Source: Eledone cirrhosa (lineage: Eukaryota). Taken from it: DNA of 64,000 nucleotides. The stretch spans positions 90,644,001 to 90,708,000 of the forward strand of contig OZ024740.1 in NCBI GenBank assembly GCA_964016885.1. The letters are read 5' to 3'. Below are positions 18,287 to 60,329 of this stretch, piece after piece. The notes below the pieces were generated by a model. It saw only the letters and a list, made by a program, of their open reading frames with translations, made no database searches and had not been told where the DNA came from. Position 1 is the first letter of the stretch. Each line of letters opens with the position of its first letter. The position numbers and the translations under genes are program-made.

Positions 18287-18324
18287 CCTTTTGAAAAGCA
18301 GAAGAACTGCGAAACCGGTAAAGG
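18287..18324 (+). ncRNA. Variant or degenerate HHR in the 5' pLTR (second copy 23260-23297)
   Basis: cctt TTGAAAA gcag-aagaa-ctgc GAAA ccgg TA aagg; all stems pair but the core deviates from CUGANGA; the 3' copy also has GAAA->AAAA. Confidence 0.65.
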
Positions 18325-18489
18325 AACCAAATAAATATATATATTTAAAAAAAAAATAAGACTCCAGTTGTATTTTCGATTTCATCTCTTTTTATTTATA
18401 ATTTCACTCGTGTAGGACACCTCGGTTATTTTTCATTTTGTAAAAAAAACCTCACTTTCTAATATATACCCACCACACAAAGACCGAAA

Positions 18490-21400
18490 ATGCCACCAAA
18501 GTCTCAACAAAACAACAACTCATTGAACCAGGACATCTTAAATGAACTCAAAGAGATTTCCTCTAAACTCTCAATTTTGACCAACAAAGTGGAACAAATA
18601 CACATCTATAAAACAGTACCCCACGAAGAAACAGAAAATACCCAAGAGACGAATATTACTCCAGTATTAACTAAGCTAATCGAAACCATTGAAACAGCAA
18701 TGCTCCAAAAGCTAGAACAACCGTTAGAACCCAATCTACGAGATGTCTACTCAGTGAAAAACACCTTAATCAACATATGGTCTCAAAAGCTCACATCCCG
18801 CAAATTCGGTATTTGGAAACTCCTAAAAAATAATGGCAAGGCAGACATATATGAAAAGTGGCTAAACTCTACCCCAATCATCCTCCCCAAAAAACTCCAA
18901 ATAAAACCCATCCCGAATGAACCAGAAAACCAACAAAGTCTTAGGGAAAAGAATGGCATTGGAAAAATGTTAAACATAAATAGAACTGTTGTGATTAAGA
19001 GCCAACTCCAAAGAAGAAAAATTCAAATCACTCGACCAACTGATGGACACAGAAATCTCAAAGCACTCTGAAGGCCTACTCTATAACAAACCCCTAAAAC
19101 TTTGGAAAGAAAACTGTGATGATGAAGAACTAACTTCCCTCCAGCGATGGGAAAAAAAACGCCACCTGGTTCAACAACTATGAAATGGACTTCAAAAATG
19201 AACAACATACAGGTAACCCATTTTTAAAACAAACTAAAACTCACACACCACATGCACAACAAATAACAAAAAAAGTAACAAAACGTCAACATACCCCCAG
19301 CAAAACTATAACGATAATCCCAGAAACCATAGACAAAACTATAACCCTACTAACAAAAACCAAAGATCCCCGAACACAAGGCAGGACCTGATCCGCAGAT
19401 CACAACCCACACAAAACCTATTCCAAAACCGTAGACCCTGCCCACACAGAGCCTGTTCAAAACCGTAGATCCCAACCCACACAAAAGAACAAAATCTACA
19501 ACCCGGACTATCAACAAACCGAACCTCAATACGCCCGAAACTTCTATACAAGACCACACAACAACAGGGGAAATACCATTAGATATAATAATACCATTGA
19601 AAAAACATTCCAGAAAAATCATTTTTTAGACCAATGCTGCAGGACTCACGACACCCGGTGGCACAAACCGATATTGAAAAACCGAAAATAATTAACATTT
19701 CAAATACAAACCTCTCAGCCCAACAAGTAAAAATTCTCTCCAAAGGTCTGAAATTCACACCAACACCACAATACCCTAACCCCAACGAGATAAATGACGA
19801 TATCTCACACTTCTGTAGAAAATTACGTCTCACAGAGGAATTCTTTGACAAGGAGAATAACGACGAATCAATTGTACGGAATAAAAGCAGCTACAACCCA
19901 ACAAAAGGTAGAAACAGAGTTCTGGACAAATTTTGTGACCACATAGCTACCGTCCCATACCATCAACTACCGCAACCTAAACCCAAACCCAACACGAGTC
20001 GAAGGGAATGGGAGATTATCCATGAACTAAAAAACAATACGGACATTATAATTAAGGAAGCGGACAAGCGAAGTACTGTTGTCATTATGGATGCTGAAAA
20101 ATATAAAAATTCTATGTTCTCTCTCTTACAAAATACTAATTACTATGAAAGAGTAAAAAACTACCAGGAATCAAAAATAATGACCAAATTAAACACACTG
20201 ATTTATCGATACCAGGAAGACCTAACTAAAAAGGAACGCGATTATCTAACAAATTTTGAATACAAAACCAGCAACCTTTACGGACTTCCGAAGATCCACA
20301 AGTGTAAAATAATCAACGATGCCTGTAAACAATCCACCTCAGCCTGCGTGAACACACAATACCCCACATACCTTAAATTAAGACCAATTGGAGCGGGCCC
20401 ACAATGTGAAACACACAGATTGAGCAACTTTATAGACATACTACTGAAACCAATACTGAAACACATACCAAGCCTTGTAAGAGACGATCTGGACCTCTTA
20501 AACCACCTCCCCAAACATGTCAACAACGACACTATTATTGTGTCTTTCGATGTAGTGAATCTCTACACAACGATCCCACGCCAATACGGACTAGAAACAA
20601 TAGGATTCTGGCTAGAGAAATATCCCAATGAGATACCTGACAGAATAGAAAAAAGCTTCATCACCGAGGGATAAAAATTCATCCTACAGAACAACTTTTT
20701 TGATTTCGATGGCAATACTTACAAGCAAATATCGGGGACTGCGATGGGTACAAAAGCCGCTCCAACTTATGCCAACTTAGTCATGGCATACTTAGAAGTC
20801 CAGATATATAAACAGTCCAAATCAAAATACATATTGAACTTCCACAAATATTTATCAGAGAATTGGAAACGCTACTTAGATGATTGCCTCATTATTTGGT
20901 CCCACACACTCGACCAACTGAAGGATTTCAAAAACTTAATAAACGGCATCAATAATCACATCCAATTCACAATGGAATACAGCCAAGATCAACTGCCATT
21001 TCTGGACATCTTAATCTTAAAAAAAGACACACATATCGAAACTGACATTCACTACAAACCAACAGATTCCAAACAATATCTGCTATTCACCTCCAACCAT
21101 CCAAAGCACACGAAGACGAACATTCCTTTTAACCTAGCAAGAATAATTTGCACAATTGTCTCCAATTATGAATCGCGAAATAAAAGACTTCAAGAATTAA
21201 AGGACATTCTACTCGAGAGAGAGTACCCACTATTACTAATAAATAATTGTTTCTACTTTTGGCACAAGGCCAGCAATTATCCCAGTACATTACTGGTACT
21301 TTATTTTATCGACCCCGTAAGGATAAAAGGCAAAGTAAACCTCGGCGGGAATTGAACTCAGATCGTAAAGGGACGTAGCTATGCTGGAAAGCATATCCTA

Positions 21401-22114
21401 CCCTCTGCCGATACTGCCAATTCATAATAAATAATGGAATAGAAAGGGCTAAAGCAATAGACATTGATGAATTACGGAAACAGAAACAAATTCAAGGTAC
21501 GTCCAATATTCTATCATATATCTAAACACACAACCCAAGAAATGCAGAAGCTTACGACACTACTCACAATAACATCCCACTACTAAAACAAAACCCAACA
21601 ATGAAAAAAGCCCTTGAAACATACAAAATAATCAAAAGCAAAAGACAACCAAAATCACTGAAAACATTACTCACCAATGCCAAATTACCTACTACAAACC
21701 CACAACCAAGTATAAAAAATGTGGTCGCTCTAATTGTGGAACCTGCACTCACCTCATTGAAGGCAACACGTATACATTTAAATCAGGACAAAATTTTTCT
21801 GTAAAAAATCATTTCACTTGCTCATCAAAAAATCTATTTTATGCCATTAAATGTAAATGATGCAATGAAGATTATATAGGACAAACTAAACTCACACTCA
21901 GAAACGAATGACAGTTCATCGCCAACAATTACGAGATCCAACCACGAGACAGATACCACTAAGTGCATATCTAGACATTTGCGCAAGTAATAAGACACCC
22001 AAATTCCAAGTCTTCCCATTTTACCTTTGCGCTAACAATACAACAGAGCAAATGCGAATAAATAAGGAAAATATGTTTATTCAAAAATATAGACCAACAT
22101 TAAATATGGTTTAA
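18490..22114 (+). pseudogene. Disrupted PLE polyprotein (N-terminal domain, RT, GIY-YIG)
   Basis: Several frameshifts and stops plus a SINE insertion; motifs as for the element. Confidence 0.88.
21248..21424 (-). mobile_element. SINE inserted into the PLE ORF, 11-bp TSD
   Basis: TSD taataaataat at 21237-21247 and 21425-21435; excision restores PLLLINNGIERAKAIDIDELRK. Confidence 0.93.
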
Positions 22115-22708
22115 TATACATTATGTCAACTCCATAATATGACACACACACACATAACACCTTCTACTTTAGAAAAAAAAACCCGAACTAAATAAACCTT
22201 AACATACGTTTGCACTGACAATACAACAGCAAACACGAATAAGTAAGGAAAATATGTTCATTCAAAAATATTCCTACGAAAGGAATCACTTTCCTACACA
22301 CACACATAGACACACACACACAACACCCTCCCCCATTTCTACTAATAGAATCATCTTCCAATACACACATACAGACACACACACACACACACATATATAC
22401 ACACACACAAGCACACAAATAAACATACATATCTTCACTTCAATAGAAAATCTGAACTCTGACACCCCAGCGAACTAACCATATTCACTGAACCAGAACA
22501 ATTCTCCCAATCCCATTTCTCTTGACCACTATCTTTCCATTGTCATATATTCTCTTCAAAGACTACAGAATAGTTTTCCAAATAAGGACGCAAAAACGTA
22601 ATGAAAACTTGTTCACGTGACAGCCAAATTTCATTTATAACCAATCAAATCACGTTTATTAAAAAAAAGCCTACGTGAGCCACCTTTTTTTAAAGGAAAG
22701 AATTTCAA

Positions 22709-22739
<31 letters not shown>

Positions 22740-23430
22740 CACAAGCACACAAATAAACACACATATCTTTACTTTCTTTATTCAATAGAAAATCTGAATT
22801 CTGACACCCCAGCGAACTAACCATATTCACTGAACCAGAACAATTCTCCCATCCCTTTCTCTTGACCATTATCTTTCACTTAACTCAAAAATTCTCTAAA
22901 AAGGCTACAGAATGGATTTCCAAGTAAGGGCACAAAAATTTAATGAAAATGTGTTCATGTGTCAGCCATAATTTAATTTATAACCAACCAAAAAAAAAGC
23001 CTTCGTGAGCCTCCTTTTTTCAAGTAAAAAGAAATTCAAACACTCATATATGAAAAAACAACCTGTGACAACCACCTCCTCTTATTTGAAGAACTATTGT
23101 AACGCGAACTGGCGCGAAATTTATTATAATTATTGACAAACCAATCAAATAACTTCTCGAAAAACCTGGCATTTTCGAGCCACTTTTTCCATATAAAACA
23201 AGTAACATTCAGAGACCAACCAGATGTGAGAAAAACCACAGACCCTCCATCTCAACTGACCTTTTGAAAAGCAGAATAACTGCAAAACCGGTAAAGGAAC
23301 CAAATAAATATATATATTTAAAAAAAAAATAACACTCCAGTTGCATTTGCGATTTCATCTCTTTTTCTTTATACGTTCACTTGTGTAGGACACCTCGGTT
23401 AGTTTTCATTTTGTAAAAAAACCTCACTTA

Positions 23431-23512
<82 letters not shown>

Positions 23513-23516
<4 letters not shown>

Positions 23517-26315
23517 ATAAAAGGTAAGCATTAAGAGAAGGATTTTATCCAGGTATTTACGACCGTTTCGTTAGTAAGTGCAGCCTTATATTGCTATACT
23601 GCAAATAGCAGCCATTCAATTATAATTGTTGTTTTCAGTCGAAATTTTCAAAATAGTGAGTAACTTACTCTTGAAATAATTCTTAATATATAGAGAAAAA
23701 CATTTATTTGGAATTGTATTTACCAGTGTAGAGAGGGAGGAATCAGAAGTTGAGGGGACAAACGGAATAGTATAGAGAGAGAGGGAGGGGGAAGGGGTAG
23801 GAAGTAGAGTGACAAATTGAGATGGAGAGAGGGGTAGAGGTGGAAGGATTCCTTGGTCAGTGTTGATAGCAGACTTCATATCATGGAATGTAGTGAGTTA
23901 AAGAGAATTAAATTGATCATAGTGGGAGGGATGTATAGAGAGAGAGGGGGGGGGGTTATGAAGAGATAAATATATATATATATAAAAAATAAAGATAGAG
24001 ATAATTAATGACATAAATAAAAGCAAAGAAGGGGGTGAGAAAGAAGAAAAAGAAAAATATAGCCAAGAAGGGGAGGGAAGGAAGGAAGAAAACGAAGAAA
24101 TAGAAGAGCAATGAGGGAGAAGAGGGGGATATATGTATTAGTTTTGTGGGTAATTAAAAGGATTTAGATACAACGAGAGGATATAAAGTCTAAGTATATG
24201 CAGTTTGTCAGTTGGTAGTAAGAGGTTAAGGGTTCGATTTGTAGTGCGAAATCTCTTTGAGTCTATGGTTACAATCAATTGATCTTTCGATTTTATTGTT
24301 GAGTAACTTATTCTTCGAACTCAAGATGTCGAACAGCTCAGGGTCGCATAATGGACAGCTTCTCATACCACTCCGATATGGGCGCGCGTTCGATAATTGT
24401 TTCCACTTCAGGGTGTATTGATGGCTACTTTTCCCCATTTGCCAGGTCTTGTTTGCAAAGGTAATTAAATAACGATGCTGGGAATGTTTCAATGCGTACG
24501 GTGTGTATACCAACGGGCTTGAAATGTATTCCCAGTCGCTCCGATGTAATACCATTTCTGGTTGTCTGATTCCACTGCGCATTGGTAAACCAGGTTAGAC
24601 TGCATACATTCATTATGTAACGGACAGGTTTCAGGTAGGTGGCAGATACAATTCTTGTCATGGGCAATTTTGGCTTTATTGGTGGGCTGCGATGCCTGCA
24701 CAAGTGTGTTACGTTTTGTTTTCCTATTAGCAGGTGGTTGTGTATTAGATATTATGTTGTGTTCGGTGGTGATTGTATTGTTATTGTTGTAAATTTGAGT
24801 TTTGGTGTTGATAAGTATCTTTTTAGCGTTAAGCATCTTAATGTGTGCCTCTATATTTGGTGCCGTGGAGTAAGATAGTCTAATAGATTTAGTGTTAAGG
24901 ATTTTTCTGTATCTATGTGAATCTTGAAAGTGCTTATTTATTATTCTAAAGAAGGTAGAGGGTAGCTTAGTATTAATAGAGGTGTTAAATATGGGGTTAT
25001 ACCAAATATATTTTCTACTGCGTGACTTGTTTGATTTCGATGTTGTATTTCTATTTGCCGTATACATTGCAGTTCTATGCGTAAGTGCGTGTGTGCGTGT
25101 GTTACCGGAGTTTGTGTTATGCGTGTTCGTGTGCGCTTCACGGAGTCTTACATCTATATATTTTACTCTATCTAAGTGGCCTGCCTTGTCTAATGCGGTA
25201 TTGTAGTATTCTGCATGTTCTTCAAAGATTTGTCGGTTAGACGAGAGGCGGGAGATCCTAAGGGATATGCTGCATGGAATGGATATAATTATGGATAGTG
25301 GGTGGTTTTAGTTACAGTTGATCTATGCTAAATGTTCATTAATCTTGTGAAAAGGACTTATAAGTCCCGTATTTAGCTTAAGCGTCGCGTCTAGAAAGTA
25401 AACTGTTTTAGTGTTATATTCATACGTTATGCTAAGGCCTATTTTCCCGAGAGTATTTCTAGTATTCTTACGGAGTCTTTCTATGCTCTGGTTATTTAGG
25501 TTCTTAACTAGGAGAAGGGCGTCGTCTCTGTAGATTCCACCGTGAAGGTCGCTAAACTCACTTTGAAAACTATGGGCTATGTAAATGCCTACTAAATCTG
25601 TGACTTGAGCCGAGTCGTTAGCCCCCATCGTGATGTCAAAGTTATTTAATCTATCCTTAGGCATTTTCAAATTTAATTATTGTTTTCCTAGCAGCTAATA
25701 TGATGTTTATCTCGTCGTCTGTTATATCAGAATTGGCGTTGGCGAATGCTAAGGCTTTATCCAAGGTGTTGGGAGATATAGATGAGTAATACTCGTTAAT
25801 GCTAAATTGTATAAATTTAGATACTTCTTTGTTAGCTATATTGTTAAACCACTTAATTGTTTCGGTAGCGTTACACCATAGTTTAATCACTAGTGTATTA
25901 TTCATTTGTGCTATCACTCTGTCTAATATATGTTTACTAATTTTCCCGATGTCCGATTTGGACGGGCATATAAGTCTAATTGTGGGGTTATAATCAACAT
26001 TTACCTTGTGGTCCTTGAGGATAAATGTGGGGGTACCTGGCCTAAGTGGCTCCCTTCTGTCGTCTATTCCAAGGTGTTTGACTATATTATGTGCCTCGTT
26101 GTTGATGTTTATCAGTGCCGCCTCATTAGTTTTTTTGTATTTCCTATGTAATTCCTTCCGTATGAAGCTATTGTATGTATTAATATCCATCGTATACACA
26201 TTTGATGTTTTGTCCGCCTTGACAATAATCCCATTGGTGGTTCGCAGCTTTTTTAGGAATGTATTTATGTCATTATGGAGTTTATTATTCCTCCGCTTTT
26301 TGAATTTGATATTCA
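23513..26315 (-). mobile_element. Hydra-clade PLE, disrupted, 5'-truncated at (TA)n, tail-to-tail with the Neptune-like element
   Basis: [62 protein letters not shown] (CxCx5Cx5C), YYIGAT, KW and CPLC. Confidence 0.88.
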
Positions 26316-26323
26316 TATATCTA

Positions 26324-26365
<42 letters not shown>

Positions 26366-26373
26366 AATATATG

Positions 26374-26443
<70 letters not shown>

Positions 26444-26461
26444 ACATGAATGTATACAGAC

Positions 26462-26516
<55 letters not shown>

Positions 26517-27122
26517 TGCACATTTTATTTCCGTTTACTTAGCTACATAATCGGTGCTCTTCTTTTATGCACCATGACATTTTCCATCGAATATTCTTCA
26601 TCAACCCTAAGTAATGAGGTATATAAACATTATATATAAAGAAATAAGGAAAGAGAATAAATAGAGGTTGATATTAATGGGAGAGAGATATGTGGGAAGG
26701 CAGAGAGAGAGACAAGCAGAGAGAGTGAGTGAGAGATAGAAAGATAAAGTGTCATCGATTAAGAGAGAAATATTGAGATTGTGAACGATATGCAAATCAA
26801 TAATGTATGAACATCTATGTTAGTCAAACAAAGCAAGATGTTCTATTAGATGAAGAGGGCAGGTGCTGCGGAATTCATTCTATATATTTTTCTAAAACGT
26901 AATGTATGCCGAATAAAAGATTATTATTTGGCGAGAGTACATTTAACTACTGAAGAAAACTTCATAGAAACCGTGTTCCTTTGTCATTCGTGTGGCCGTC
27001 GGACATGTGACAAACATAGTGAAGATAGAAATCACATTGAAATTTATATATGTAAAAATGGTGTGATCTTTCAAGACTAAAAATGAAGTTGCAATGACCG
27101 CATTGGTCTTACAAGATTAATA

Positions 27123-27330
27123 TCAAGTGGACTGTTGATTTCTACATGGGTGGTTCCAAATAACGATATCAGACCGGTTATGTTTGGTTTGGTGGCATAT
27201 TATATTTTTAGGTTCCAACTGTATTTTTTTTGAGCCGTCAGTCTCTATCGAATGGCCCACCTGAAAGGTGGCACTCAGCCTTTCCAGAAAACAAAAAAAT
27301 AACAAAGGCTCTATTATGTACAAAGGTGAA
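27123..27330 (-). mobile_element. Possible RLE (R4-type) non-LTR endonuclease fragment
   Basis: KHNRSDIVIW resembles the HNRPDIV motif. Confidence 0.35.
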
Positions 27331-27339
27331 CTAGGACAA

Positions 27340-28680
27340 AAACACCACGGTTAGTCGGTAGTAGATTACAAACATGATGTATGCGTTTACTACATCTGCC
27401 AGGATGTTCAGAGAAAGCTTCCTCTCGGCTCATTGCTGAGTGGGAGTGGCCAACCTTCTCGTTACCATATCCAAGTTTTTTGTCCATTTGGAAATCTGAA
27501 CTACCCAGACTCCGAGTAATTTAATTGGTCCGTCCGTCAAATACTCGGCGCCCTAACTGGCATGTACTTACCTTACTCTATGCCAGCCGCAGGACCACTG
27601 AGTTTTCCTAGTAAATGTTGCTCCTGTTGTCGCTTCATATGTTTCGAGAGTGATGCCGATCAATTCAATATACTTTTTGCTCGACACTACTGCGGTAATT
27701 TCGCCCGCATATGTAGACACGGATCCTTCACATCCTAGTTATCGTGGGATGCACTTCACAGTCTGCAATTTGTGTAGTAGTGGCTCGAACTTCAAGACGT
27801 AAAACAGAGGAGAGAGCAAACATTGCAGAAACAAGTGTATGAAGTTGAAGGGCTTTGAGAAGCAGCCGTTCACTCTAATCATTGTAAAGATGGTTGATGC
27901 TATCGAAAATGTTCCTCAGGCATCCTTTCAATGATGTATCGCATAATGTGGAGAATGTCGCGAATGGATCTATCCTGAATGGTCAATATTTCCGTTTCTT
28001 CTACTAGAACAACAACTGAAGCGTCAACCATCTCGCTTCACTACAGACATGGTCAAATTATTAAACTCAGCGTTTAGCAGATTTACGGGCCAGTAATTAA
28101 CTCTATGGCCCCTTTGTTCGGCACCATTCAGACCATTGTGGTAGGCACTGAAATCCATGATTCAATTCAACCCGTTATTACTCCCAAACTTTGCACGATG
28201 TGGCTCTGAAATTTCGCATGTATCTCCTTGGGATCGATTACCGTGTTCCCATCTTTATCCGCCAAGGATATATTTGTGGCGTTGAGGTCACGCTGCTAGT
28301 CCACCACAGCTAACTACTTTAATTTCATCGTATCGAAGAGCACGCACCCGTTCTCTGACATTACAGCCTTCGTTCTTCGCATTGAAGAATTTTTCGAGTG
28401 CCTATCTCGTTGAGTGAATGTCGACTGTGATGCTTCCTCTAATGGCCTCTTATTGATTTCTAAATATTTCTCCCTTAAATCTAGCTTTCTATAGCATTAT
28501 TTACTTATTATTGATTCTACTTTAAATGCCAATTCCGGGTGAAGCACCATCAGTTATTGACGATTACCCTTGTCAAGCACAGTTAACTAATTCACTAATC
28601 CGTCCTTCGTAATCTTCGCGTGCCGGGAATATCAAATTAAAGTCCCAGTTACAGGGTCGCTAAATTTGAAGCCTATGTGA
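27340..28680 (-). mobile_element. L1/Tx1-clade LINE RT fragment, decayed
   Basis: Minus-strand translations NYWPVNLLNAEF, DRSIRDILHIMRYII, RVNGCFSKPF..LSPLFYVLKFEPLL, STYAGE (YADD site), DGPIKLLGVW. Confidence 0.85.
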
Positions 28681-31322
28681 GTCAATTATGTATTATGCAC
28701 TCTGTCTAAACATACCATCTTGAATCAGAACGAAACAGGTTTAAACAAAAGAAAAAATCCTTTAATGTTATTGATGACATGATGATATCAATTGATGTAA
28801 ATTGGCATATGTTTCTGAAGCAAGGAAGGTAAACATTACATTCCGTGTCTTACATTTAAAATGCATGATTCAATAGTGCCTACATGTATATATATATATA
28901 TATATATAACCGCGCACGCGCGCGTGTGTGTGTGTGGTGGTGTGCGTTTGTGTGTGTACCTATTTATGTATCTTTGTATATATGTATATATATATATATA
29001 TATATGCATACATGGTTCTGTGTATGTTTGTGAGAATTTGATCATGTATTTGTTTCATACAAGATTATGTAAAGATTTTTGATATACAATATATATCAAG
29101 ATGGATTCTTTTCTTATGCATCATTCAATAAATGTAATACATGCGTAACATAACAACACTAAAAATTGAATTCCCATGAAACAAAGTAAATGCTGTTAGC
29201 TGAGCTAATTTCCACATATTAAACTGATAATAACATTGTTGCCAATATAAAGTACTATTAAATGTTGGAATTTATTTTTTCTTATATGTAAAACACATTT
29301 TCGTTTAGCAGCTTTCTTATATCTTATTATTCCATTCCTTGTGGAGACGTTAGAATTGTTGAAGATAAAGAATTGCATCTCTTTATCTCAAGATTACAGT
29401 TTTCAATAGAAATTGATGATTTTTTGGCTGAAAATGGAATTTCTATAATCGGCTTCAGATGCAAATAACATTGAATAATATTGAATATGGACAGGTAGAG
29501 ATTACTTACATTGCATGTATACTTTACTTTCGCAAGAGAAATTATTATGTAATCCTTATCAAATAATACAAAATAATAATGAATAAAAAAACAAAATTAA
29601 TCATTTGAAGCATGTATCAACGTAAGCCCTTTCCATATATAGATTTATATTATATATGTTTATTTAAATTTATAACAAAAGAAGAGAAGCCTTTAAAACT
29701 TTGTTTTTGATATACGATTAAATGACTTTTTTCCTGATGTCGTAATACGTTGTGAAATTGTTGTTTTCTTTTATTTAGAATGAGAATAGCAATGCGTTTC
29801 TATTGAAATTAATACAATTCCACTTGGGAAGTTAGTAAACTATTTTAGAAGAATATTTATCTGACTTTGAATACCAAATTAGACCTGACATTTTGAATTA
29901 ATGTTAAATGACTGAATGTAGCATCATGCGTTACTTATCTCCTCTTTGTTTTGTGGTTATTTACTTCAGAATTTTTAGGAATGCAATAAAACTTGGACAG
30001 TTTTGTAAATGACAGGTGTTCTTGTTATTTTACTGAAGCTATGTTACCTAATTTAGTCATGCATATATATTTATTTTTTGTATTGTATACCTTGAATTTT
30101 AAACATAAAATGTTTACGGCATTATGAAATACCAATGTTGAATGGTTCTAGTAAGATATATACAATTATTTTTCTTAACAATCAGTTTCTTCCATAACAT
30201 ATTGTGCATTGCTTTATAATATAATGTGAGTAATATTATAGAAGTTAATATAAAGTTAATTATACATCTATTTAAAACACGTAAGAAAAAGTAAACGGTA
30301 TATATTAACATTGTTGAACACGGGTGTAGGCTAATTAGAATATAGACATGTGTCTGGTTATATAGAAGTCACAACAAAATAAAATATGATGTATAATTTT
30401 ATATATCTGTATGTAATGTATATTATATAATATAATGGGGAATGACAAATACTTTCAATTCGAGGTGAATATGGAAATAGGTTGAATGTCAGGAAAATAA
30501 TTTATTAGCCTAAAACATGAAAGTGATTCGAAAACTATTGATTTTATTGAAGCAAGTCTGATATATTATCAATATTCTTTCTTTACGAATTTTCACCTAA
30601 ACAATATGTTATACACCTCCTGCAATTAAGATGTGCCTGGGCATTTTCGTTGTATTGTTTAGCAGTAATTCGCCACATGCGTGTGTGCCATCATCTGCGT
30701 ATCTTATTCAAAGTAAATGTAATATTATTTAAAAACTACGAAATATCTGGATATTCTCATGTCTATTTCGTCTTGAGGTCCTGCATCAGATAAATAAATG
30801 TACAATAGCTAATCAAATAGCATCATCAAGAAACAAGTTTAAAGCCATTGCTCCAATTTAATTATACTAATGTATTTATTTTCTCGAACAATTCCTAATA
30901 TCATTCATCAAGTAAGTAATGACGGATGAGCAATCTCCCAAACTAAAGATGGTTGGACACAACGGATGTATTTGCCGAAGCTGTGACATGCAAATAAAGA
31001 AATCTAAAACAGTTGACGTTATAACTGGAATGACATCAGGTTCATTGATAATTGTATTGATATAGGTGTGGTGGGGCATCACAACAATACAATATTATGA
31101 CAATATTTCGACTCGATTACAGATATTGTCAGAATCATTAGATGTTGTCAAAACAGACCATTATGTATCTTTTTCATAAATTTCACCCTAACAAGTTCAA
31201 AATATGTTGAAAAGATTCAAGACAACCACTGTATAAAGACTATAAAATGCAGGCAATCAATTGAATGTCCCTGAAATGACTGAAATAGGAAGAATCCATA
31301 TGCTCAAACTGTATGTAATAAT

Positions 31323-31426
31323 TGTTTCTACTTTTGGCACTAGGCCAGCAATTACCCAGTGCATTACTGGTACTTTATTTTATCGACCCCGTAAGGATGA
31401 AAGGAAAAGTTAACCTTGGCGGGATT
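31323..31426 (-). mobile_element. SINE, 5'-truncated, 11-bp TSD
   Basis: Core sequence; TSD tatgtaataat at 31312-31322 and 31427-31437. Confidence 0.9.
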
Positions 31427-35030: not shown

Positions 35031-35370
35031 CTTACACAAATGAGGAGGACAATTTTATTTTACTTAAATTCCAGTAAACCGGACGTGGTTCGGTACAAAC
35101 GAAACAGAAAAATTAAGAGAAAAACAGAACACAGACGCAAATGTACATGCTAACATACATACTCTCATATATATATTCAATTAGACAGTTATGTAGTCAG
35201 AAGTATAGTGTGATCAAATGTATTTTTGTTACAACCCATATGTATATACAATTCAAAGGGATATATGTATATAATTAGACATAGTCACAGATATATCTAT
35301 ATGAGTTTGGCTACCTTTAACAGTGTGGCTCAATGAAGAATTAATTAAGCAAATAATTATTAATCAGAGC

Positions 35371-36145: not shown

Positions 36146-36210
36146 GCACACACAAACACACACACACAGACACATACACACTCATACACACACACATATA
36201 TATATATATA

Positions 36211-36527
36211 TAGTTATGTAATAAACAACATAAGGCAATTATTTCATTTACCAGTGGTTTCTTAAAAGCAAACAAATTTTGCTTTCAATCATCAGAATGA
36301 AAAAAAATCATGGTGCATTTATTGTCATTGGATTTTTTCTAAAGTTCCAGTGTCAATAAATACACCAGGATTTTTTCATTTTGATGATTGAAAGCAACAT
36401 TTGTTTGCTTTTAAGAAACCACTCGTAACTGAAATAATTGCCTTATGTTATTTATTACATAACTATTAAGCTCTGTTACCTACATATAGCACTCCTTTTT
36501 CCTGGACCTTTCCGACGGAATTACTTC

Positions 36528-48357: not shown

Positions 48358-48395
<38 letters not shown>

Positions 48396-49351
48396 GGCGT
48401 GTGTGTGTGTTTGCATGTGTGTACCTTCGTGTGTGTCTGTGTATATATGAATGTTTGTATCAATATAACAAGAGAGGAAACCTAGAAAATTGATGTAATT
48501 ATTACCTTTGAAATCTTCATAACGTCACATTAGATTTCAGAGCTAGGCCCATATTGGAAATGCAGTCCTTAAAAGTCAGCTCTTCTTCATGCAAGAAAGT
48601 GCAAGTAATCTAAATAACTGGTGTAGGATACCGTAGGAAAATTTGACGGGTATAGCAACAACAATATTACATTCCTTTTTAAATAGTCGAAAGGAAACAC
48701 CTTTTGTAATCTCTACTTGATATATAGCACGGGATTTGAAAAAAATTATTTAAGTGGTACCTCAGTCTTTCAATTTCCAAACTTGATTATCAGGGGCAAT
48801 AACTTTCTTTACTGCATGTTGTCTAAGGAACGAGATGTGTAAGGATATTTATGGCTTGAATTTGTCATTCACCATATTTTAATGATCATGGCTAGCCTAA
48901 ACATACCATAACTTTGGCTTTATATGATATGGACGTAATTATTAAAGTTTGATTGCAGCATACATTAATCTTTCAAAGACATCTTAGATCGTTTTCGGTT
49001 TCTCGTCTTCTGTTATAGATTTGTTATACGTGCCTTGGGTTGGAAAATGTTCCTTTTTTTGGGGTCTAAGAAATGTTTATGTTAGTGTTTACGTTCAAAA
49101 AATAAGGTGTCAACTTAATTATACTTATATTCCTTTTATTAGGTCAAAGGTAGACATATAGTCAATTTACATTTGAAGCCGGTTTCTAGTAAAGCCCTAT
49201 TGTATGAACACTATCCATAAAATATGATTTCTTAGAAATCTAACAATTAATACTAGGAACTAATTTCTTAAAAGCTACATGAGATGGCAGAAAACTAATT
49301 TATACACATTTCTTTTCTTCATCATGATCATAAAGATATCTATAATCGATG

Positions 49352-49476
49352 TTTTTATCGACCCCGTAGGGATGAAAGGCAAAGTTAACCGTGGCGGGAT
49401 TTGAACTCAAATCATAAAGGGCTGTAACTCGATGTTGCAAAGCATGGCACCCGACTCCCTACCGATACTGCCAATC
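49352..49476 (-). mobile_element. SINE copy
   Basis: atcgaccccgtagggatgaaaggcaaag..gatttgaactc. Confidence 0.9.
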
Positions 49477-50234
49477 GATTATCACGTTTAGGAAATTAGC
49501 ATTTGGGAATATAGTGATACTTAGTCCTAGTTTACGAAAGGTACTAATTAAATCTGTAGGGATCATATCTCATATATAGCCTGCGCAAATGTTCACCCTC
49601 TATGTATAAACCACATTTTATCCTCATGTGTATGATGAATACTTAACCAAACCAAGTCTTTATATCCGATTTGTCATACGACAATATTGAGACATCGAAT
49701 GAATCGTCTGTTTCAGATGCAAATTGTTATTCTAGTGTACAAAAAAAAAGGTATTTTATTATTGATGCATACATTAAAATATCTTTAAATATTTGTACTA
49801 TCTAGTATTATTTCAGTTCAATCTTCGTACAAACAACTATCATCAGCTGGGCTTCTTAGAAATGTCCCAAAGCATCACATTTATAGAAAGCTTTTGAAGG
49901 ATAATCAAACAAATAAAATCTTATAGGAAGATTTTTCGATATATCTTAGCATTTATATCAAGTAGATAACGATAGATAGAATCAAGATATACTAAATAAA
50001 ATCACAAATAAATGAGTGAATGCTGGATTAAATAATATTATGTTATTAAGAATATTCCTAAAGATATGAAAAATGACAAAATTGTAGCATACCTAGATAC
50101 ACCTGATTAAATTAGACATGCCATATTTTCGGTGTACGAATTTTAATAATATATATAAATTCGTCTTTAAGTACGTGTGTGTGTGTTTGTGTGTGTGTGC
50201 GTGAGTGAGTTAGTGTGTGTATGTGTGGGTGTGG

Positions 50235-50266
<32 letters not shown>

Positions 50267-50599
50267 GTTTGTTTCTGTGTGTGTGTATGTGTGAGTGTTT
50301 GAAATGTAGACTCATCGATAATAGACATAATCATCGGTCACTATATGGCACAATGAAGAAAACGCATAAAGTATCTCTAAATATGGTACGCTGTGATATT
50401 TTATATCCATAAACATATATGTAGGTATGGTATATATTTATTTCTGTTATATTGATAAAACAAATTAACATATAGAAAATGATGAATTAAAATGTTCATC
50501 GTTGTTTAATCCTGCGTTGTCAAATACATGTATTTCCCCACAAACACTCGCGTCTTTACGTACCATAATATGTAACTTTAAAAAAATGTTATATAACAG

Positions 50600-51960
50600 G
50601 TAACTCCATATTGCCATTCGGTGTGACTCAAACTCCGCAATTCCATACAGGGCCACACTAGCTCCACTGTGCCCTAGATCTGAAGTGCCTCTTTTTCTCA
50701 TTCTATCTTCGATATTGCATTACTACGACATCCTAGTTCCATATTTCCATGAGGTGTTACTAAAGCTTCCCAGTGATAAAGTGTGCCAGGCTAGGGTGCG
50801 ACAATGCCATAGTGCGGCACCATAGATTCAAAGTGTCATATTTTTCCACATTATCTCCCCATTTGCATAGAGGGTAATCCTAGCTCCATACCCCCACACT
50901 GTGCCACTCAAATTCCCCAATATCATACGATGCTACCCTAGGTCAACTGTGCCATACTGCGACACCATAGCTCCGAAATGTTATATATGTTGACCCTAGC
51001 TCCCCATTGCCATCCTGTGAAACCTTAGTTCCACATTTCCATACTGTGTCATCCTGGCTACCCATTTACAACGTATTCAAGCCTAGCTCCGCAGTGCCAT
51101 GTTGCACCACCCTAGCTTCAAAGTGCAATATTTTGCGATCTATCTCCCCATTTCCATAGGGATTCTCGATAGATTCATAATCTGTCACTAAAGCTCTCCA
51201 GTACCATAATGTACCACCCTAACTCCGCTGTGCCATACTGCGGCACCCTAGCTCCGAAGTGCCGCATTTTTCGAATCTATTTTGTCATTGCCATACAGCA
51301 ACATCCTAGTTCCTTATTTCCATACACTGTCGCTCAAGTATTCCAGTGCCATAATGTGACAGTCTAGCTCCGCAATGTCACACTGCGCAACCCTAGTTTC
51401 AAAGTACCATATTTTGCTACACATATTCCCATTGCCATAGGCTTTCATCATATTTCCATATTTCTATTTGGTGTTAGTGAAAGTCCAAATTCTCATAGTG
51501 TACCACCCAAGCCCCTCAGTGCCATACTGCGGCTGCCTAGCTTCAAACTGCCATATTTTCTTACAACATCTCTCCATTACCATAGGGGCTACTAAAGCTC
51601 AATATCTCATTACTGTGTAACGTTATCTTCCCTGTTCCATACTGTGATACCCCAGTTCAGCAGTGCTTAGCTTCAAAATACAGTAATTTGCCACCCCACT
51701 GCCGTTCAGCGACATTCTAGTTCCATATTTCCATAATGCGTCACTCAAGCTCTCATTGCCAGAATGTACCAGCCTAGCTCCGCTATGCCATAGTTCGGAA
51801 CCCTAGCTCCGAAGTGCCTTTTTCTGTCACCCCATTTCCCCATTTCCATACAGCGATATGCTTGTTCCATATTTAAATATGACATCACTCAATCATCTCT
51901 GTGTCATCGTGTAAAACCCTTGCCTCGCAGTGCATAATGCGGCGCCCTAGCTCCGAGTTG
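50600..51960. repeat. Diverged 29-bp minisatellite with ~145-bp higher-order period
   Basis: Monomer ~cctagctccgcagtgccatactgcggcac; marker motif recurs at ~50806, 50950, 51094, 51230, 51375, 51519, 51786, 51930. Confidence 0.85.
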
Positions 51961-52093
51961 CAAAAGTTGAAACGGTGTTTGAGTCTTTTTCCGTAGAAAT
52001 TTCACCATCCCACTTCCTTAGTTTTAAATCATTCATTTCAATTTGACTGATACGCGGACGGACATGATTTTATGTGTTTCTAATGTAGGTTAT

Positions 52094-52139
<46 letters not shown>

Positions 52140-52142
<3 letters not shown>

Positions 52143-52436
52143 TGTTATGCTTTGGGAGTGTCATGTTGCAAATAAGAATAACACGGACCAGTTGGTTTCA
52201 CTCAAATTTATTAATAATTAAATTTATAAATTTAAGAATTTATAAATTTCCGGTTGGTTGGTTGGTTCCACAACTGGACGGTTGTTCATATTTTGTCAAA
52301 GTTATTTCGTCACACATTCTGTGACCTCTTCAGTATGTTTCTTATTGGCAACCAACATAACCCTCCCAAAGCATAAAAATATCGGTTTCCACACACGTTT
52401 TCAGATAAAGAATCTTGCTAAACAAATTCAGAAACG

Positions 52437-52440
<4 letters not shown>
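52140..52440. mobile_element. Short fold-back pLTR element related to the 56941-59900 PLE termini; HHR-like 52287-52337(-)
   Basis: ttatgctttgggag.gtcatgttg / caacataaccctcccaaagcataa; cata CTGAAGA ggtcaca..tgtgac GAAA..tatg with stem III and NUH damaged; remnant also at 52757-52808. Confidence 0.7.
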
Positions 52441-52760
<320 letters not shown>

Positions 52761-52801
52761 CGTTTCTGAATTTGTTTAGCAACATGACCCTCCCAAAGTA
52801 T

Positions 52802-52912
<111 letters not shown>

Positions 52913-53434
52913 CAATTAGTTACTTAATGTGTTGATTATTCAAAACATTTAGTTCATAAAAGTTCAGAAGCACTTAACAGTTTCTTCAAGAGTATAATAT
53001 CAATAATATTAATAAATGGAAACTTTCTTTATAAAACCATATTTATTTTATTATATATATTTCATGGCTACCAACATTTTAGTAGGCCCTTATCAGATGA
53101 AATACGAAAGTTGGTTTACAGATAGTGACATATTCAAACTAGAACTTAATGTTGTGTGTTCTACTTGAATAGTGAAGAACAACTTCAAATCACAAGATGA
53201 ATGTGCCAATGAGGATAATTATTACGATTTATTTTCATAAGAAAGGGAAACAGAGTTTATTATTAGGTTGGAAGAACATTTAAGGAAATATTTTAAGAAA
53301 AAAATATCTTATTAACAGACTATTTATAAGAATATACGTACATAATTGTACCGAGCATATTCGTGAGGGTGTAGAGAGATGAAAGAATGAAATAAAGATC
53401 CGCAGGCATGGTATACATTTCCAATCATTTTAAA

Positions 53435-53506
53435 CACGACACATGTTTCAATAAGAAATAGATCGATCCCGTAGACATGATCGATTATCACTGATCTCGT
53501 CAGGTG
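53435..53506 (-). ncRNA. Type-I hammerhead ribozyme (inverted pLTR copy)
   Basis: cac CTGACGA ..atcgatc/gatcgat.. GAAA catgtg TC gtg. Confidence 0.8.
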
Positions 53507-56500
53507 AAAATGAATTGTCTTCAATTCCTTGATATGAGAGAGAAAATTAACGGTGTTCACTCACAGTGTTTAGTCCCCCATATGAAGATCAAGCAGTCAG
53601 AACACGGCGACTGCTATCGTCCTCAGTTAGGGTCATAAAACTATAAGTTTCTATCTCCCAATAGCTGTCAAAGACGCTGGACATCAATCAAATCTGTAGA
53701 ATTACAGTCGGTCACAGTTAATGTGAGTGGGTACATTAGGACTCTTCCAACCCTACCACAAACTCAACGAAAATCTAAATTATGTCAATGCAAAATCGAA
53801 CGACCCTAGAATAGTCACTAACGGAATTACCAAAAGCGTCTATAGTAGAATTTCAGGACTATCTTCCAATGAAGAAACCTTTGATAGGATATCGAATTAC
53901 TATAATAGCGCCCTGGAACGCGCGGGGCATAACGAGGGAATTTCATTCAAACGTCCATTAAATAGTAGTAGCAACATTGCCTGCGATAGCTTAGGCCAAA
54001 CTAGTGACACTTTAGTTAACAGCAGACGGGATGCGAGGGAGGATCAATATAGACTTTATGTTGTATTGCCTCCTAGTCCCAATGTCGATGGTACCAAGGG
54101 AACCAATAACCCAGGTACAAACCGGGGTTTGAGCACCTTAATGCCAGCGGAAACTCTAATTGTTACCTTAATTGTAGAACTGATAAAACAACCGTTGAAC
54201 GTAAAATGGAACGAGGGCCGGGTAGAGGGAATAGGGATAGATGTAGCAAGCGTATAGTGGATATAATCCCGGTTATCTAGGGTAATCCCAATGGCTGCAC
54301 GGGGGGTATACCGCCCCGGAGACATGGGACGATTACGAACAAAATCGGGACACCCCAGGAAACCATTTCACCCACAGGCAATTTTTCAGTTATAATAGAC
54401 CAGTAGCTAATAGGGAGATAGGTAACTCTAGTATGGATAGCAAGAACAAGAGGCATCGGACCAGAAAAATCCTGTGGTATAACCCCCCTTACTCCACTGA
54501 CCTGACCACTAGTATAGCTAAGCTTTTCTTTAGGGCCTTAGACAAATGCTTCTCTAGATCACACAAATACTATACAATATTCAATAGGTATACCATTAAG
54601 CTGTCCTACTCCACAACCAGTAACATAGCTCAGAATATAGCTAAGAAGAATTATAGTAGACTTAGGACAGCTCAAAGGGGATGAGACATGGCAGAACTAA
54701 TGGCAGCTCTATGGATGAACGAACTCATACACGTGAGGTGAGTCAGGTCACCCCAACTCCTGGGAACTTACCCATAGAGCAGACAAGAACTGAGACCCGA
54801 CCCCAGAGGTACCGTGGTTCCTCTGGGACTACCCAGGCCGATAGTAGAACATGTAATTGCAGGGATACCGCCATTTGCCCCTTGGCTGGGAAATGCCTCA
54901 CTAAAAACATAGTCTACGACTGTAAGGTCTCCACTTTACATAGAACCTTTAGGTATTTGGGGCAACTGCCACTGCATTTTAGGATATATGGTATAATAAC
55001 CGCCATACCTTTAATAGATTAGATAGCACGGCGCTTTCTGAATTAGTCTGGATGCTTAAACAATAGAATATAGAGCACTCCTTATCCTGGTCCATAATTT
55101 TCTCAGCCCAGCCAGAAAACGGCAGCACTGGCGTTTATAATTTGTGTATAGCTGAAACGTTTAATATTATTATAGGCGGCCCCCAATTAATTAATAGGAG
55201 AGTGGACCTTTTCATCAACTGCCAACATAGAACCTCGAAAACCTTCCGTTGAATTTTTGGAAAGTAACCTACCACAAACTCCTCCCTTTTGGAAAGTAAC
55301 TTACCACTAACTCTATACCTTAGCCATAGAATTATCTCAATTAGCAAAAACCAGACAATCACACACTCAGGTAGTTAGACAGCGAAGATCGTTTACGCAC
55401 TCACAAACGGTACTCGGTCCGTTTCCACAGAGTTCTCACAGCTGAGTGCACATTAGAGTACCTAGTTAGTAAATAGATAAAAAGATTACACGCTCGGGTA
55501 AGACCGATGACGCACATTCACCATTACCTTAGGATACCCTAACACACTGAGTTCTCTCGGTTAGGATATAGCTAGGCGTATTACACACTCAGTTAAGACA
55601 TATTGCGCTATCTATACATAACTCTACACACAGTACCCGATTTCTTTCGACACTGAGTTCCCACAGTTATTACTTGTCACGTTCCTATCGATTGAACACT
55701 ACACTAGGTTTTGATCCGTGATCATCTAACCATCGAGTGCTCACAGTTACAGATTGGAAAATAATACTTACACACCATTAATGGGCCTACACACATTCTC
55801 TGGGTTTTGCTATTATTTGTTATTTTATTTTGCCATTTATGTTGGATAACACACCTTCCACCACTCAAACACCTATCTTAAAAGCCCAAGGGCCCATATG
55901 ACGGAAACATCGCACATACTGACACCTTAACCCAAAATCCCAACCCTACACAGAGCCCCTTGGTGGCCTACATAGTGGTTGCTTGCACGCACAGATTTGG
56001 GGACTCAGATTCTCAATGGGACAACGGCACATACTGAGTTCGATATGAGCTGACTACTTGCTCTTCACAGAGACGTGTATATACCTAAACATACACTTTT
56101 TTGGACGATACGGATGTGTATATACCATAACATACACTATTTAGAGCTACCGATGTTACAATTCAATCTATACACGTATAGCAGATCATTGAACTGAACT
56201 TACTTGCGTGTTTATAGGGTTGCGGTTGACCCATTTTTTCCAATTTACATCGTCAAATTGAGATTTGACCAATATAACATTTGTTGTTTTATGAACCAAC
56301 TTTCGGTGAATACTATGTTGGTATATTTGTATTTTTCTTTTTTTCTTTAACCTCGTGTCGGTGGGTGTGGGTGTGTGTGTGTGCATTCACTCACAATAAC
56401 TGTGACCGTCTATAGTTCTACAGATTTGATGCTGTGTTCGTATGTGTATATATATATGTTTTTCTTTGACCTAGAGTCAAGTATGTGTGATTGTGTTTAC

Positions 56501-56674
56501 CCACTCACATTAACTGTGACCGACTGATAGACATTTGATAGTTTTATGACCCTAAATGTGGACGATAGCAGTTGCCGTGTTCTGACTGATTGATCTTCAT
56601 ATGAGGGACTAAACTCTGTGAGTGAACACCGTTAATTTTCTCCCTCATATCAAGGAATTGAAGACAATTCATTT

Positions 56675-56748
56675 TCACCTGACGAGATCAGTGATAATCG
56701 ATCATGGCAAGAGGATCGATGTATCTCTTATTGAAACATGTGTCGTGA
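56675..56748 (+). ncRNA. Type-I hammerhead ribozyme with GUC cleavage triplet
   Basis: tcac CTGACGA [long stem II] GAAA catgtg TC gtga. Confidence 0.82.
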
Positions 56749-56940
56749 TTAAAATGATTGGACATTTATACCATGGATTCGGATGTTTATTTTGATACAA
56801 ATACTCCGTTTTACATCATCTACCTGTTCCCATAAATGGAATTGGAGATATACAAAAGCATGGAGAATTTAATATTGCTAACAAAAATGTCATTGGACCG
56901 CTTGACACAACCAATAATACACCTTACTATATATATATAT

Positions 56941-59900
56941 TGTTATGCTTGGGGAGGGTCATATTGTTGTAATAATATTGCCAGAATCAATAACAGAACA
57001 CACTCACTGTTTGGTTGGTTTTCGCTTCTCTATCTTTTATATCAGTTAATTCATTCGGTCCTCAATGTTTACCATTGAATGACCAACGGTCAAAAATACA
57101 GATATTATATAGACACAAACACATATATAAATATATAGTCTAAAAAAGTTCTTACCTTGAACATCTGCAACATCGTCAGTGGTGCTATTATGTCCCTTAT
57201 GTTGTATTGTATATCTACGCCATCTTTTTTTTATGTGTTTATTTATTTACTTATTTATTTTTTGTCTTCTCTGCCCATGCGTTTGCGTGTGTGTATATTG
57301 TTCGCATTTGGGCGACTGTATTTTGGTTATTGTATTATATATTAGTTTACTAGTGTGTGTTTATATGTGTTTGTTGTTATTGTGCTTGTGTATATATTTA
57401 TTTATATTTCTCTTAAGTCAGTATTGTTTGTTTGGGTGTTGTTATTATTCAATTCATTTTTTTCTATTTAGCTTTGGTCTTCTTATTTCTATTTCGCTGG
57501 CCTCTCTGATTTGCCTATCTGCTGGGTCATTTCTATGTTTAGATATTATTTTAATGTCTATGCTGTCTATGTTACCGTCATGTTGTTGTCTGGCGTGTTC
57601 ATATAATAGTGAATCGTTTTTTCGTCCTTTTAGTTACCCCAGTGTTGGTCTATCCTTTCACCTATGCTACAAGCTGTCTCGCCTATGTATGTTGTTGTCA
57701 TGTTTCTGCATGTACCCTCTGCACACCTTATGCTATAGACTACGTTTCTAGTTTTACTTTACATATAATATATTTCCTATTAGTACAGTGGGTTTTCTTA
57801 AAAGGGTATGTTTTGCTGATCTGGGATTTTATGGTATTTCCTGGCTTTTTTACCACCTTAAACTTTAAGTGGGTCGTACTCAGGGCCTTTCTACACTGGT
57901 TAGCTAATTTCCCTCCAGGGGTAGCTTCCACGAACATGATGCTATGGTATCTCTGGTTGTCGTACCATGAGGTATCGTTCCCTATATTTTGTTTAGAACT
58001 ATCTAAGATATTCCATGATTTGCTCCTGTATAATGGGCAAATTCCTTTCATATCCAGTTCTATGAGGGTCTTATACTTCTCCGTGGCTCCTTCGTATACT
58101 CTGATTCTCTATCTTTGGTTGTAGCCAGAGAAATGCATGCGGTTAATGAAGTGTTTGATGTGTCGTTCCATTTCTGTTGGGTCGCATATGCGGGACACGT
58201 TCTTCATCACTCATACCATGCCTGCGATCATAATATTAAACTTAGCACTACTGGACATTGATGAGTTTTTGAGTATCAGGTATTTGGAATCCAAGGGTTT
58301 AGCGTAGTGTGAGTGGAGAATTTGGTCCCTCACGCCTATTGTCTTAATCCAGAGTTCCGTGTCTAATACATGTAGTCTATTGTTATGGTGTTTGGAAGGG
58401 TAGTCGATAGTTACAGTTATACTCTGGGGTATGGAATCTGCTGGATGCTTTCCATTGTGCTGCATTCTAAATCATACTTCTTAGTACTCTTTTGTGCGGG
58501 TTTTCTTATTACTGTGTTAGTAGCGTCTACGTAACGAGAGTACATAATGAAGTCTATGGAGGTCTCATCAAGGAGATATTTGAGTCTCCTTTCCCACCAT
58601 AACATAGAAAGTTTGGCAACGTCACCAGCTATGCGGACGCCAATCGCCGCTCCCTTATTTTGGGTGTAGATCTTCTCGTTGAATTTGTATATGTGGCCCT
58701 TTAGGGTAGTTTTAATATTAGCCCCTATTGCATGTGCGACCATTCTTCTTACGTGATCATTGTCTTCGGGGGTCCGTATGGTTTTGGTTCACCCATCCAC
58801 CTTGCCATGGGAGTCTTTTTCGCCATTGAGGTTATGGTGGGGGGTGGTCTACTTCTTATGGGTCTACTGGTGCAGAAACGTCTAAGGTCATGGCTGTCTA
58901 GGTAGTCAGTGTCATAGGTAAGTCTAAGTAGGAGGCCCAGTTCATCTGTGTCGAGGTTGCAGAACTCCACCTCACTCTCACTGACCATCTCCAATCATTT
59001 TCCCACGGCAAAATCATTGTTAATGGATGGGGATAGTGATACCACGTCCATACCGTCTATTATGCAGTTATATAGGTTTTTGTTTTTGTTGCATTCATTG
59101 ATTCTGCTGAGGAGGTCCTCTGTACTGTCATATACATCTGGGAACATCTTGAGTCTGGAACGTATAACCATTGAGTGAATGTAGGAGATCCTGTAGTTGC
59201 TAGCGACATTTCACCGTATACAGGTCTTGTTGGTGGTCCTGTTCTCGGGTCGTCGACATCTTATGGTCTTTGCGGAGCCCATACAAGGGTGGTATGTCAT
59301 TGTTAGACGCCTGGAAGACGTTGGCAGTGCCTCTGCTTGGCATTAGGATGTCGGTCCACGTCAACATGCGAGCGTTGAGGATCTTCTCTCTCCTCTCATG
59401 TATTTGCTGTGTAATTTTGCTCGTCTTGGTGATGTGGGTTTGCATAGCCTTGATGTTGTTCAGCATGCTGTCTATTGACATACTACCAGACTTATCTGTG
59501 GGTATACATAATACCTCACCTTCCCTTTTTCGCTGCTTGAGGCTAACTAAGGCTTCTACAGGTTTCCTCCCGAGATGTTGGACATCTGGTCTGCTTTGTC
59601 TCTTAGTATATCCGTCTACTGTTTTGTCATCTATTTGTTGTGGTATACAAACCTTTTTATTAAAGGGTAAACTCGGAGAATAAATTTTACTCATTTGATA
59701 TGTTTTGTCAGCTGGAATGAAGAATAGTTTCTCTAAAGGGTTGTCATTATGTCTATCGTCATAGTTGTGTGTTTTGATATTATTGTTATTATGGTTCTTG
59801 TTATAAATTCTGTCAATATTATTACAACAATATGCCCTCCCCAAGTATAACAATATGTGTTTCGACGCAAGATTTCATATCAAAAGCCACGAAAAGCAAA
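56941..59900 (-). mobile_element. Divergent PLE (RT + GIY-YIG), disrupted, with inverted termini
   Basis: PPLYGLRKDHK, GAAIGVRIAGDVA, YSRYVD, LHVLD, HYAKP, FVEATPGGKLA, TYIGETACSIGERIDQH; 56941-57000 inverted at ~59795-59853. Confidence 0.85.
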
Positions 59901-59947
59901 TATATATATATATATTTAAAAGAATAGAGGTGTAACACACAAGTTAT

Positions 59948-60329
59948 TATATATTGGTAAACGGAATAGAAAATGCTGACAAATTGTTCACAGTTTAAAA
60001 TAGTTTAATTAGGAATAAGTGAGAATTAGTAATTGTATTGGCTAGTATTCAGTTTTGATTTTAAGCTTTACCGGTTGCGCATTTCTAATGCTTTTCAAAA
60101 ATAATTTTGAGATAGAGCGTCCGTGATGTTTGCCCTGATCAGAGCAAACATCACGGAAGCTCTATCTCAAAATTATTTTTGAAAAGCATTAGAAATGCGC
60201 AACCGGTAAAGCTTAAAATCAAAACTGAATACTAACCAATACAATTACTAATTCTCACTTATTCCTAATTAAACTATTTTAAACTGTGAACAATTTGTCA
60301 GCATTTTCTATTCCGTTTATCAATATATA
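59948..60329. mobile_element. Spacerless ~190-bp-arm palindrome made of pLTR-like ends with mirror variant HHRs
   Basis: Axis at ctga|tcag (60138/60139), few mismatches; TTGAAAA gcat-tagaa-atgc GCAA ccgg TA aag at 60179-60211 and mirror ~60066-60098. Confidence 0.85.

Follow-up and report, generated by a model that had tools for sequence, protein, structure and literature searches.

A UUGAAAA hammerhead-like core inherited across related Penelope-like elements of Eledone cirrhosa, one family of which is probably cleavage-dead yet mobile

The window, by which we mean the whole 64,000-nucleotide stretch of the Eledone cirrhosa genome analysed here (G000:C1:90644001-90708000), holds a Penelope-like element (PLE) with the order pLTR-ORF-pLTR at 16654-23440 (family A) and, near 60 kb, a short palindrome that we assign to a second PLE family (family B; Table 1). 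The upstream repeat of the family A element takes in the EN C-terminus and the 3' UTR of a tandem partner. In the coding region the RT motifs GLKF, DK-R and YLDD can be read, together with frameshifts, stops (the window copy also has one in the EN) and an inserted repeat, and the RVT_1 match (E=0.0013) falls under the Pfam cut-off. The inserted repeat, of ~185 nt at about 21240-21424 in the RT-EN region, is abundant and matches many unrelated loci. GxKF, DKG and, at the C-terminus, a GIY-YIG with CCHH are read directly in ORF2 of a full-length family B copy (L116). Both families have a CX2-5CxxC linker between RT and EN (CGRSNCGTC in A, CDRPNCGIC in B), which marks PLEs of the Neptune or Nematis type (PMC8557442), and pLTRs, inverted 5'-truncated copies, a one-sided tail and (TA)n targets were all found, as for EN+ PLEs. 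By these motifs, the basis of the label 'Neptune-like', A and B class as Neptune/Nematis-type EN+ PLEs. The heptamer at the ORF1/ORF2 overlap, with its NHFLD / FFR overlap, is in phase and common to both families (L105, L116 and other B copies), and we regard it as a candidate programmed -1 frameshift site; a frameshifted ORF1 in PLEs is mentioned in the Fig. 1 legend of PMC8557442, the available text of which leaves the clade unnamed. Two further stretches, 57740-59874 (-) and 53727-55022 (+), resemble fragments of two other PLEs (a DKS motif with pieces of RT; a cysteine linker that precedes a stretch similar to GIY-YIG), without a Pfam match at E<=0.01.

Table 1. Features of the family A element and of the family B palindrome in the window.
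Feature	Position	Strand	Basis or remark
5' pseudo-LTR, family A	16654..18468	+	93-97% identical to 21840-23440
Family A type I minimal hammerhead (motif)	18287..18324	+	complete U3-A8 core at 18291-18297
Broken family A coding region	18490..22114	+	ORF1 from ATG 18490, then RT, linker, C-terminal GIY-YIG
TTTTTTA heptamer at ORF1/ORF2 overlap	19622..19628	+	ORF2 in -1 frame; same in family B copies
3' pseudo-LTR, family A, (TA)n at end	21840..23440	+	alignment to 5' copy
Family A hammerhead, second copy: U3-A8, G12A at 23284	23260..23297	+	pattern scan
~40-nt PLE 'tail', one arm only, beside (TA)n	59908..59947	-	alignment with L116, a full-length family B copy
Left arm: 5'-truncated family B 3' end, inverted	59948..60138	-	alignment and fold
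Family B hammerhead-like motif, mirror copy, U3-A8 with A13C	60066..60101	-	pattern scan and fold
Right arm: 5'-truncated family B 3' end, (TA)n at end	60139..60329	+	93% identical to L116 pLTR
Competing hairpin TCAAAA/TTTTGA (predicted)	60167..60182	+	spans 5' arm of stem I and U3-A6
Family B hammerhead-like motif	60176..60211	+	U3-A8, stem II GCATT/AATGC, GCAA, C13 at 60200, ACCGGT

Non-LTR retrozymes are non-coding tandem repeats with a type I hammerhead in each unit (10.64898/2026.07.22.740005), an identity that the RT-EN ORF and the dispersed copies of A and B rule out. Elsewhere in the genome, tandem arrays of a ~310-nt unit (G000:C1:1239858-1244283 and 5388707-5392669), each unit with a canonical core and an ACGCGT palindrome, do resemble such retrozymes.

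The full U3-A8 pattern occurs at exactly four sites in the window, 18291 (+), 23264 (+), 60179 (+) and 60098 (-), and in none of 100 shuffles; the 10-letter core alone, with one mismatch allowed, is found nine times, near chance (shuffle mean 5.4). An earlier note on this DNA had described TTGAAAA, a covarying stem II and G(A/C)AA at all of these places. The four sites stand and stem II indeed covaries (GCAG/CTGC versus GCAT/ATGC), but the shared G(A/C)AA does not: the 23264 copy reads AAAA, through G12A, and both 60-kb arms have GCAA; this A13C change affects an invariant core position and had been absorbed by the notation. One of the four copies, that at 18291, has the complete core. It is built of a 4-bp stem I (CCTT/AAGG), a 4-bp stem II (GCAG/CTGC), GAAA at 18311-18314 and the palindromic ACCGGT. 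Its core agrees throughout with Y3 U4 G5 A6 N7 R8 A9 / G12 A13 A14 A15.1 / U16.1 H17 with a Watson-Crick 3-8 pair, stem II contains G10.1-C11.1, the palindromic stem III permits a dimer, and the motif lies inside PLE pLTRs. Standard hammerhead numbering predicts a cut after 18320. A family A subfamily (L008, L010, L020) has ACTT/AAGG in stem I, with three pairs, instead of CCTT/AAGG. The second copy in the window is likely inactive, as G12 is the general base of the hammerhead (PMC6155905) and would be lost. Stem I of the 60-kb motif has three pairs only (TTT/AAG in the window copy).

Rfam returned no hammerhead family at E<=10 for either motif, which bears out the suggestion that standard searches miss the variant; with the whole window at E<=1, no hammerhead stood among the matches listed (150 of 191). 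Hairpin look-alikes, such as miRNA models placed on the palindrome, were dismissed, because a perfect inverted repeat produces such matches artefactually. Other repeats in the window have hammerhead-like motifs with the canonical CUGANGA, at 14322 (+), 13690 (-), 52333 (-), 36769 (-), 36295 (-) and 3746 (-), and the 36295 motif has a mirror at 36381 (+) with a single C3U change.

What had been called a 60-kb palindrome does lie at 60 kb, but extends over only ~380 bp (~59948-60329), with its centre at 60138/60139. Aligned to other copies, it reads as a family B insertion, 5'-truncated and inverted, that sits in a (TA)n tract. The one-sided tail recurs in other copies, and a one-sided tail of ~40 nt with an inverted truncated copy is the usual PLE arrangement (PMC8557442). 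We also considered the 60-kb motif as a pLTR of the minus-strand RT fragments at 57740-59874 and rejected this, as it matches ORF-bearing family B copies and is bounded by (TA)n. A transcript of the whole palindrome would fold as one long hairpin, with no hammerhead. A GATC ~40-45 nt upstream of the core marks the point of truncation or inversion in many B insertions (L035-L041, L049, L053, L058 and the window at 60137-60140); the shared GATC is a possible preferred snap-back site, in a sample whose query itself starts at GATC. Contigs of two runs compared with 60140-60330 revealed no alternative letter in common at position 3, 8 or 13; short contigs mask differences close to their ends.

Exact matches to the motif were counted across the whole 3.0-Gb assembly, with the stem III context GAAACCGGT fixed and reversed-pattern controls of 0-2. 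U3-A8 occurs 15,103 times, U3-G8 52, C3-A8 78 and C3-G8 twice, both C3-G8 matches being unrelated to family A sequence. The single changes make up 0.3-0.5% of matches and ~0.3 doubles would be expected, which fits neutral change from U3-A8 masters. Six C3-A8 copies at ~9.6-kb spacing (G000:C1:348863669-348911674) are a segmental tandem duplication, which inflates the single-change count. Among top-scoring copies, all 41 alignment rows, drawn from 30 family A loci and with some places repeated, show TTGAAAA. The earlier proposal that C3U and G8A are a compensatory swap and not decay is upheld, family-wide: the double change far outnumbers either single one, and a CTGAAGA consensus with independent single mutations, named in advance as the contrary outcome, is absent. 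That the core arose by decay of a CUGAAGA family, with C3U and G8A acquired independently, is refuted by the genome counts and has next to no probability left, even if one-change decay of a canonical core exists in the window (CTGATGA at 36295, TTGATGA at its mirror). The counts themselves reflect descent from U3-A8 masters and carry no signal of selection on the pair. Elsewhere in this genome, families with canonical cores gave 53,723 matches versus 1,066 in the reversed control.

Families A and B are kin. Their ORF proteins are 52-59% identical in the RT and 43-56% in the EN, and the DNA around the motif is 73% identical over 122 nt; the motif itself keeps 28 of 32 letters, versus 66% identity of the ORF DNA. 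The two insertions are therefore separate events, as had been claimed, but not independent witnesses, because A and B are sister families that share U3-A8 by descent. A third, more diverged family (C; 156 matches) has the stems AATAT/ATATT and GATTG/CAATC or GATG/CATC, and lies downstream of related Neptune-like EN remnants in three of 16 fetched loci. By hand count, 100 listed of its 156 matches comprise 85 U3-A8, nine U3-G8, four C3-A8 and two C3-G8. Ten well-stemmed U3-G8 matches, at first sight an intermediate family, proved to be minority variants of the U3-A8 family C (nine of the 100 listed). Since family C has the same core and canonical cores abound in other families of this genome, U3-A8 is lineage-specific and probably had a single, inherited origin.

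The swap as such is already published, and the Eledone motifs fall in that variant class. A natural covariation to U3-A8 was described in 2011 (Perreault et al., PMC3088659), and in PLE pLTR hammerheads in 2014, with ~1,300 matches in Schistosoma mansoni (Cervera and De la Pena, PMC4209133). Like the latter, the motifs described here are type I and minimal, lie in pLTRs, have U3-A8 for C3-G8, G10.1-C11.1 and a palindromic helix III, are missed by a CUGANGA descriptor and occur in many single and opposite-strand paired copies. Unlike them, they number ~27,000 near-identical copies where the earlier matches were heterogeneous, helix II is 4-5 bp without an unpaired base at its 5' end, and the host is Neptune-like; a sister family with fixed A13C has no counterpart described in the part of PMC4209133 available.

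Does the family A motif cleave? According to PMC3088659, which cites the exchange mutants of Przybilski and Hammann 2007, hammerheads with covarying 3-8 pairs are active in vitro, and the swap is the same as here; full stems and tertiary contacts are present in those constructs, whereas the present motifs lack both and need a dimer. In the family A dimer the hammerhead fold has a predicted energy of -18.9 kcal/mol versus a minimum of -20.3 (1.4 above, in a constrained prediction). By analogy with the PLE hammerheads already known, a pair of transcripts or of pLTRs could join through the palindromic ACCGGU as stem III, each 5' arm would then pair with the partner's 3' arm as stem I, U3-A8 would stand in for the C3-G8 tertiary pair, and the cut would follow UA at 18320, possibly with help from the element's protein. 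Among the loci compared, one of 41 occurrences is truncated at the cut site, in a sample picked for motif presence. The earlier note's suggestion of a functional variant has plausibility, among the motifs in the window, for 18287-18324 alone; the 23264 copy (G12A) and the 60-kb family (A13C) are unlikely to function. For 18287-18324 we lean moderately towards activity.

Alternatively, no U3-A8 motif may cleave at all. Stem II and the palindrome could be kept for a non-catalytic job, be it RNA dimerisation, attachment of the element's protein or, immediately upstream of ORF1, a signal for transcription, and A13C could be tolerated because the job is non-catalytic. Indeed, in a complete double-mutant scan of one type III hammerhead only the G3-C8 swap restored activity (PMC9901934); the other doubles of that region were low and would include U3-A8, which counts against family A activity. 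U3 can also mispair with the cleavage-site A17 and so extend stem I: this is seen in the minimum-energy A dimer, and in the monomer U3 is predicted to be paired with a probability of 0.8. Moreover, family B with its C13 is as abundant as A, and the anole PLE, in which RNA reads do not terminate at the cut site and hammerhead mutants leave in vitro insertion unaffected, does not need cleavage for this insertion (PMC11167929). Nevertheless, A and C have both kept the catalytic residues G5, A6, A9, G12, A13, A14 and UH, together with Watson-Crick 3-8 pairing, while both stems turned over fully, a pattern that selection on catalysis would give, and we hold a wholly non-catalytic motif to be unlikely.

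We favour, with reserve, the reading that UUGAAAA is an inherited, family-wide minimal hammerhead of related PLE pLTRs, of which A is likely a weak dimer self-cleaver and B likely cleavage-dead via A13C yet mobile. The A13C change in B is not confined to the window. Genome-wide, U3-A8 with GCAA gave 11,782 matches, and B-type stem II with another letter at position 13 gave 130, with a spectrum suggestive of decay (a hand count of 100 listed matches: ~50 T, 34 A and 16 G). A search anchored on the flanks only found 9,403 family B copies; among the 100 matches listed, all have U3-A8 and 98 have C13. Changes at A13 are reportedly damaging to the hammerhead (Ruffner, 1990). In addition, the hammerhead dimer of family B is predicted to lie 9-10 kcal/mol above the minimum, and the competing hairpin to pair U3-A6 with a probability of 0.90-1.0. 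On A13C, the 3-bp stem I and this predicted hairpin, we consider inactivity of the B motif quite probable, and we treat it as a hammerhead homolog that is not classed as a working member. Cleavage of B in trans by A through the shared palindrome seems unlikely, with a predicted heterodimer 8-10 kcal/mol above the minimum and a stem I of 2-3 bp.

It could be argued that B is active too, C13 being tolerated beside U3-A8 or with the help of a protein, in which case U3-A8-C13 would be a new functional core. Every B subfamily seen retains the rest of the core, a longer stem II and ACCGGT, and energies of naked RNA may mislead, because the hammerhead of the anole PLE requires protein to cleave (PMC11167929). 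Yet three lesions concur in family B, namely A13C, a 3-bp stem I of U-A pairs throughout and the hairpin over U3-A6, and A13 belongs to the strict hammerhead core list (PMC3088659); we regard an active B as improbable, even more so than a class of motifs that never cleaves. In the B subfamilies the other core residues, stem II and the palindrome persist while flanks differ by ~5-10% (by eye, in a pattern-biased sample), which fits either a recent loss of cleavage or a kept non-catalytic role. An ancestral A13 subfamily of B was sought and rejected: A13 copies are rare and occur on both loop types, and are therefore read as back-mutation. A search of the literature by title returned nothing relevant on A13C (or A13U/G) in hammerheads and, among the matches listed, no title on dispensable or degenerate PLE hammerheads. 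Lunse et al. are said to have surveyed PLE hammerhead variants on a large scale in 2017, which might cover A13C and may also bear on U3-A8; the same may apply to the 3-8 exchange mutants that Przybilski and Hammann reportedly made in 2007.

Family B has nonetheless multiplied as an autonomous element. We sampled 39 loci by RT similarity, from the best 40 of 1,478 candidates and hence biased towards young copies. GCAA is present in 41 of 43 family B motifs from 31 of these loci, and the full pLTR-ORF-pLTR copies (L101, L116, L127) have C13 in both repeats. ORF changes present in at least four copies comprise 14 synonymous and 6 replacement, against 164 and 391 among singletons (Fisher p=3e-4): the family B ORF evolved under purifying selection. 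Its median private divergence is 0.75%. By this ratio among shared changes, the low divergence and C13 in the full copies, the masters of B were coding-competent and recently active while bearing C13. A relaxed scan of three full-length family B copies turned up no replacement hammerhead whose stem III is valid. By a narrower margin of belief, then, we see in family B a natural ribozyme knockout: autonomous, recently active and at ~12,000 copies after loss of a core base and refolding by a competing hairpin, beside a similar-sized family A with a complete core.

Two systems invite comparison. PAc Poseidon of Anolis carolinensis likewise carries a hammerhead in its pLTR close to where the ORF starts, inserts at AT-rich targets and has a one-sided tail; its core is the canonical C3-G8 and its evidence comes from in vitro work, of which family B would be the genomic, in vivo counterpart (PMC11167929). 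Canonical hammerheads are lacking in Naiads, which proliferate nonetheless (Craig et al. 2021, PMC8557442). Naiad and Chlamys have an N-terminal EN and, as far as the available part of that paper goes, no recognisable full motif, whereas family B has a C-terminal EN, a nearly intact motif and a sister with the complete core.

The U3-A8 swap itself adds little, being in print for this element class. Censuses restricted to CUGANGA nevertheless miss a large lineage, because ~27,000 U3-A8 motifs (15,103 + 11,782) stand beside ~53,700 canonical matches in one genome. The part worth a test at the bench is family B, likely ribozyme-dead yet autonomous and young, beside an intact sister. If this holds true, canonical PLE retrotransposition would be seen, in a living genome, to do without hammerhead cleavage, and the A/B pair would be a matched test of the motif's job. 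The role of the PLE hammerhead, still in question (PMC8557442, PMC11167929), could thereby be tested on naturally matched sequences, those of B, young, autonomous and with its core lesion fixed, and those of the intact family A.
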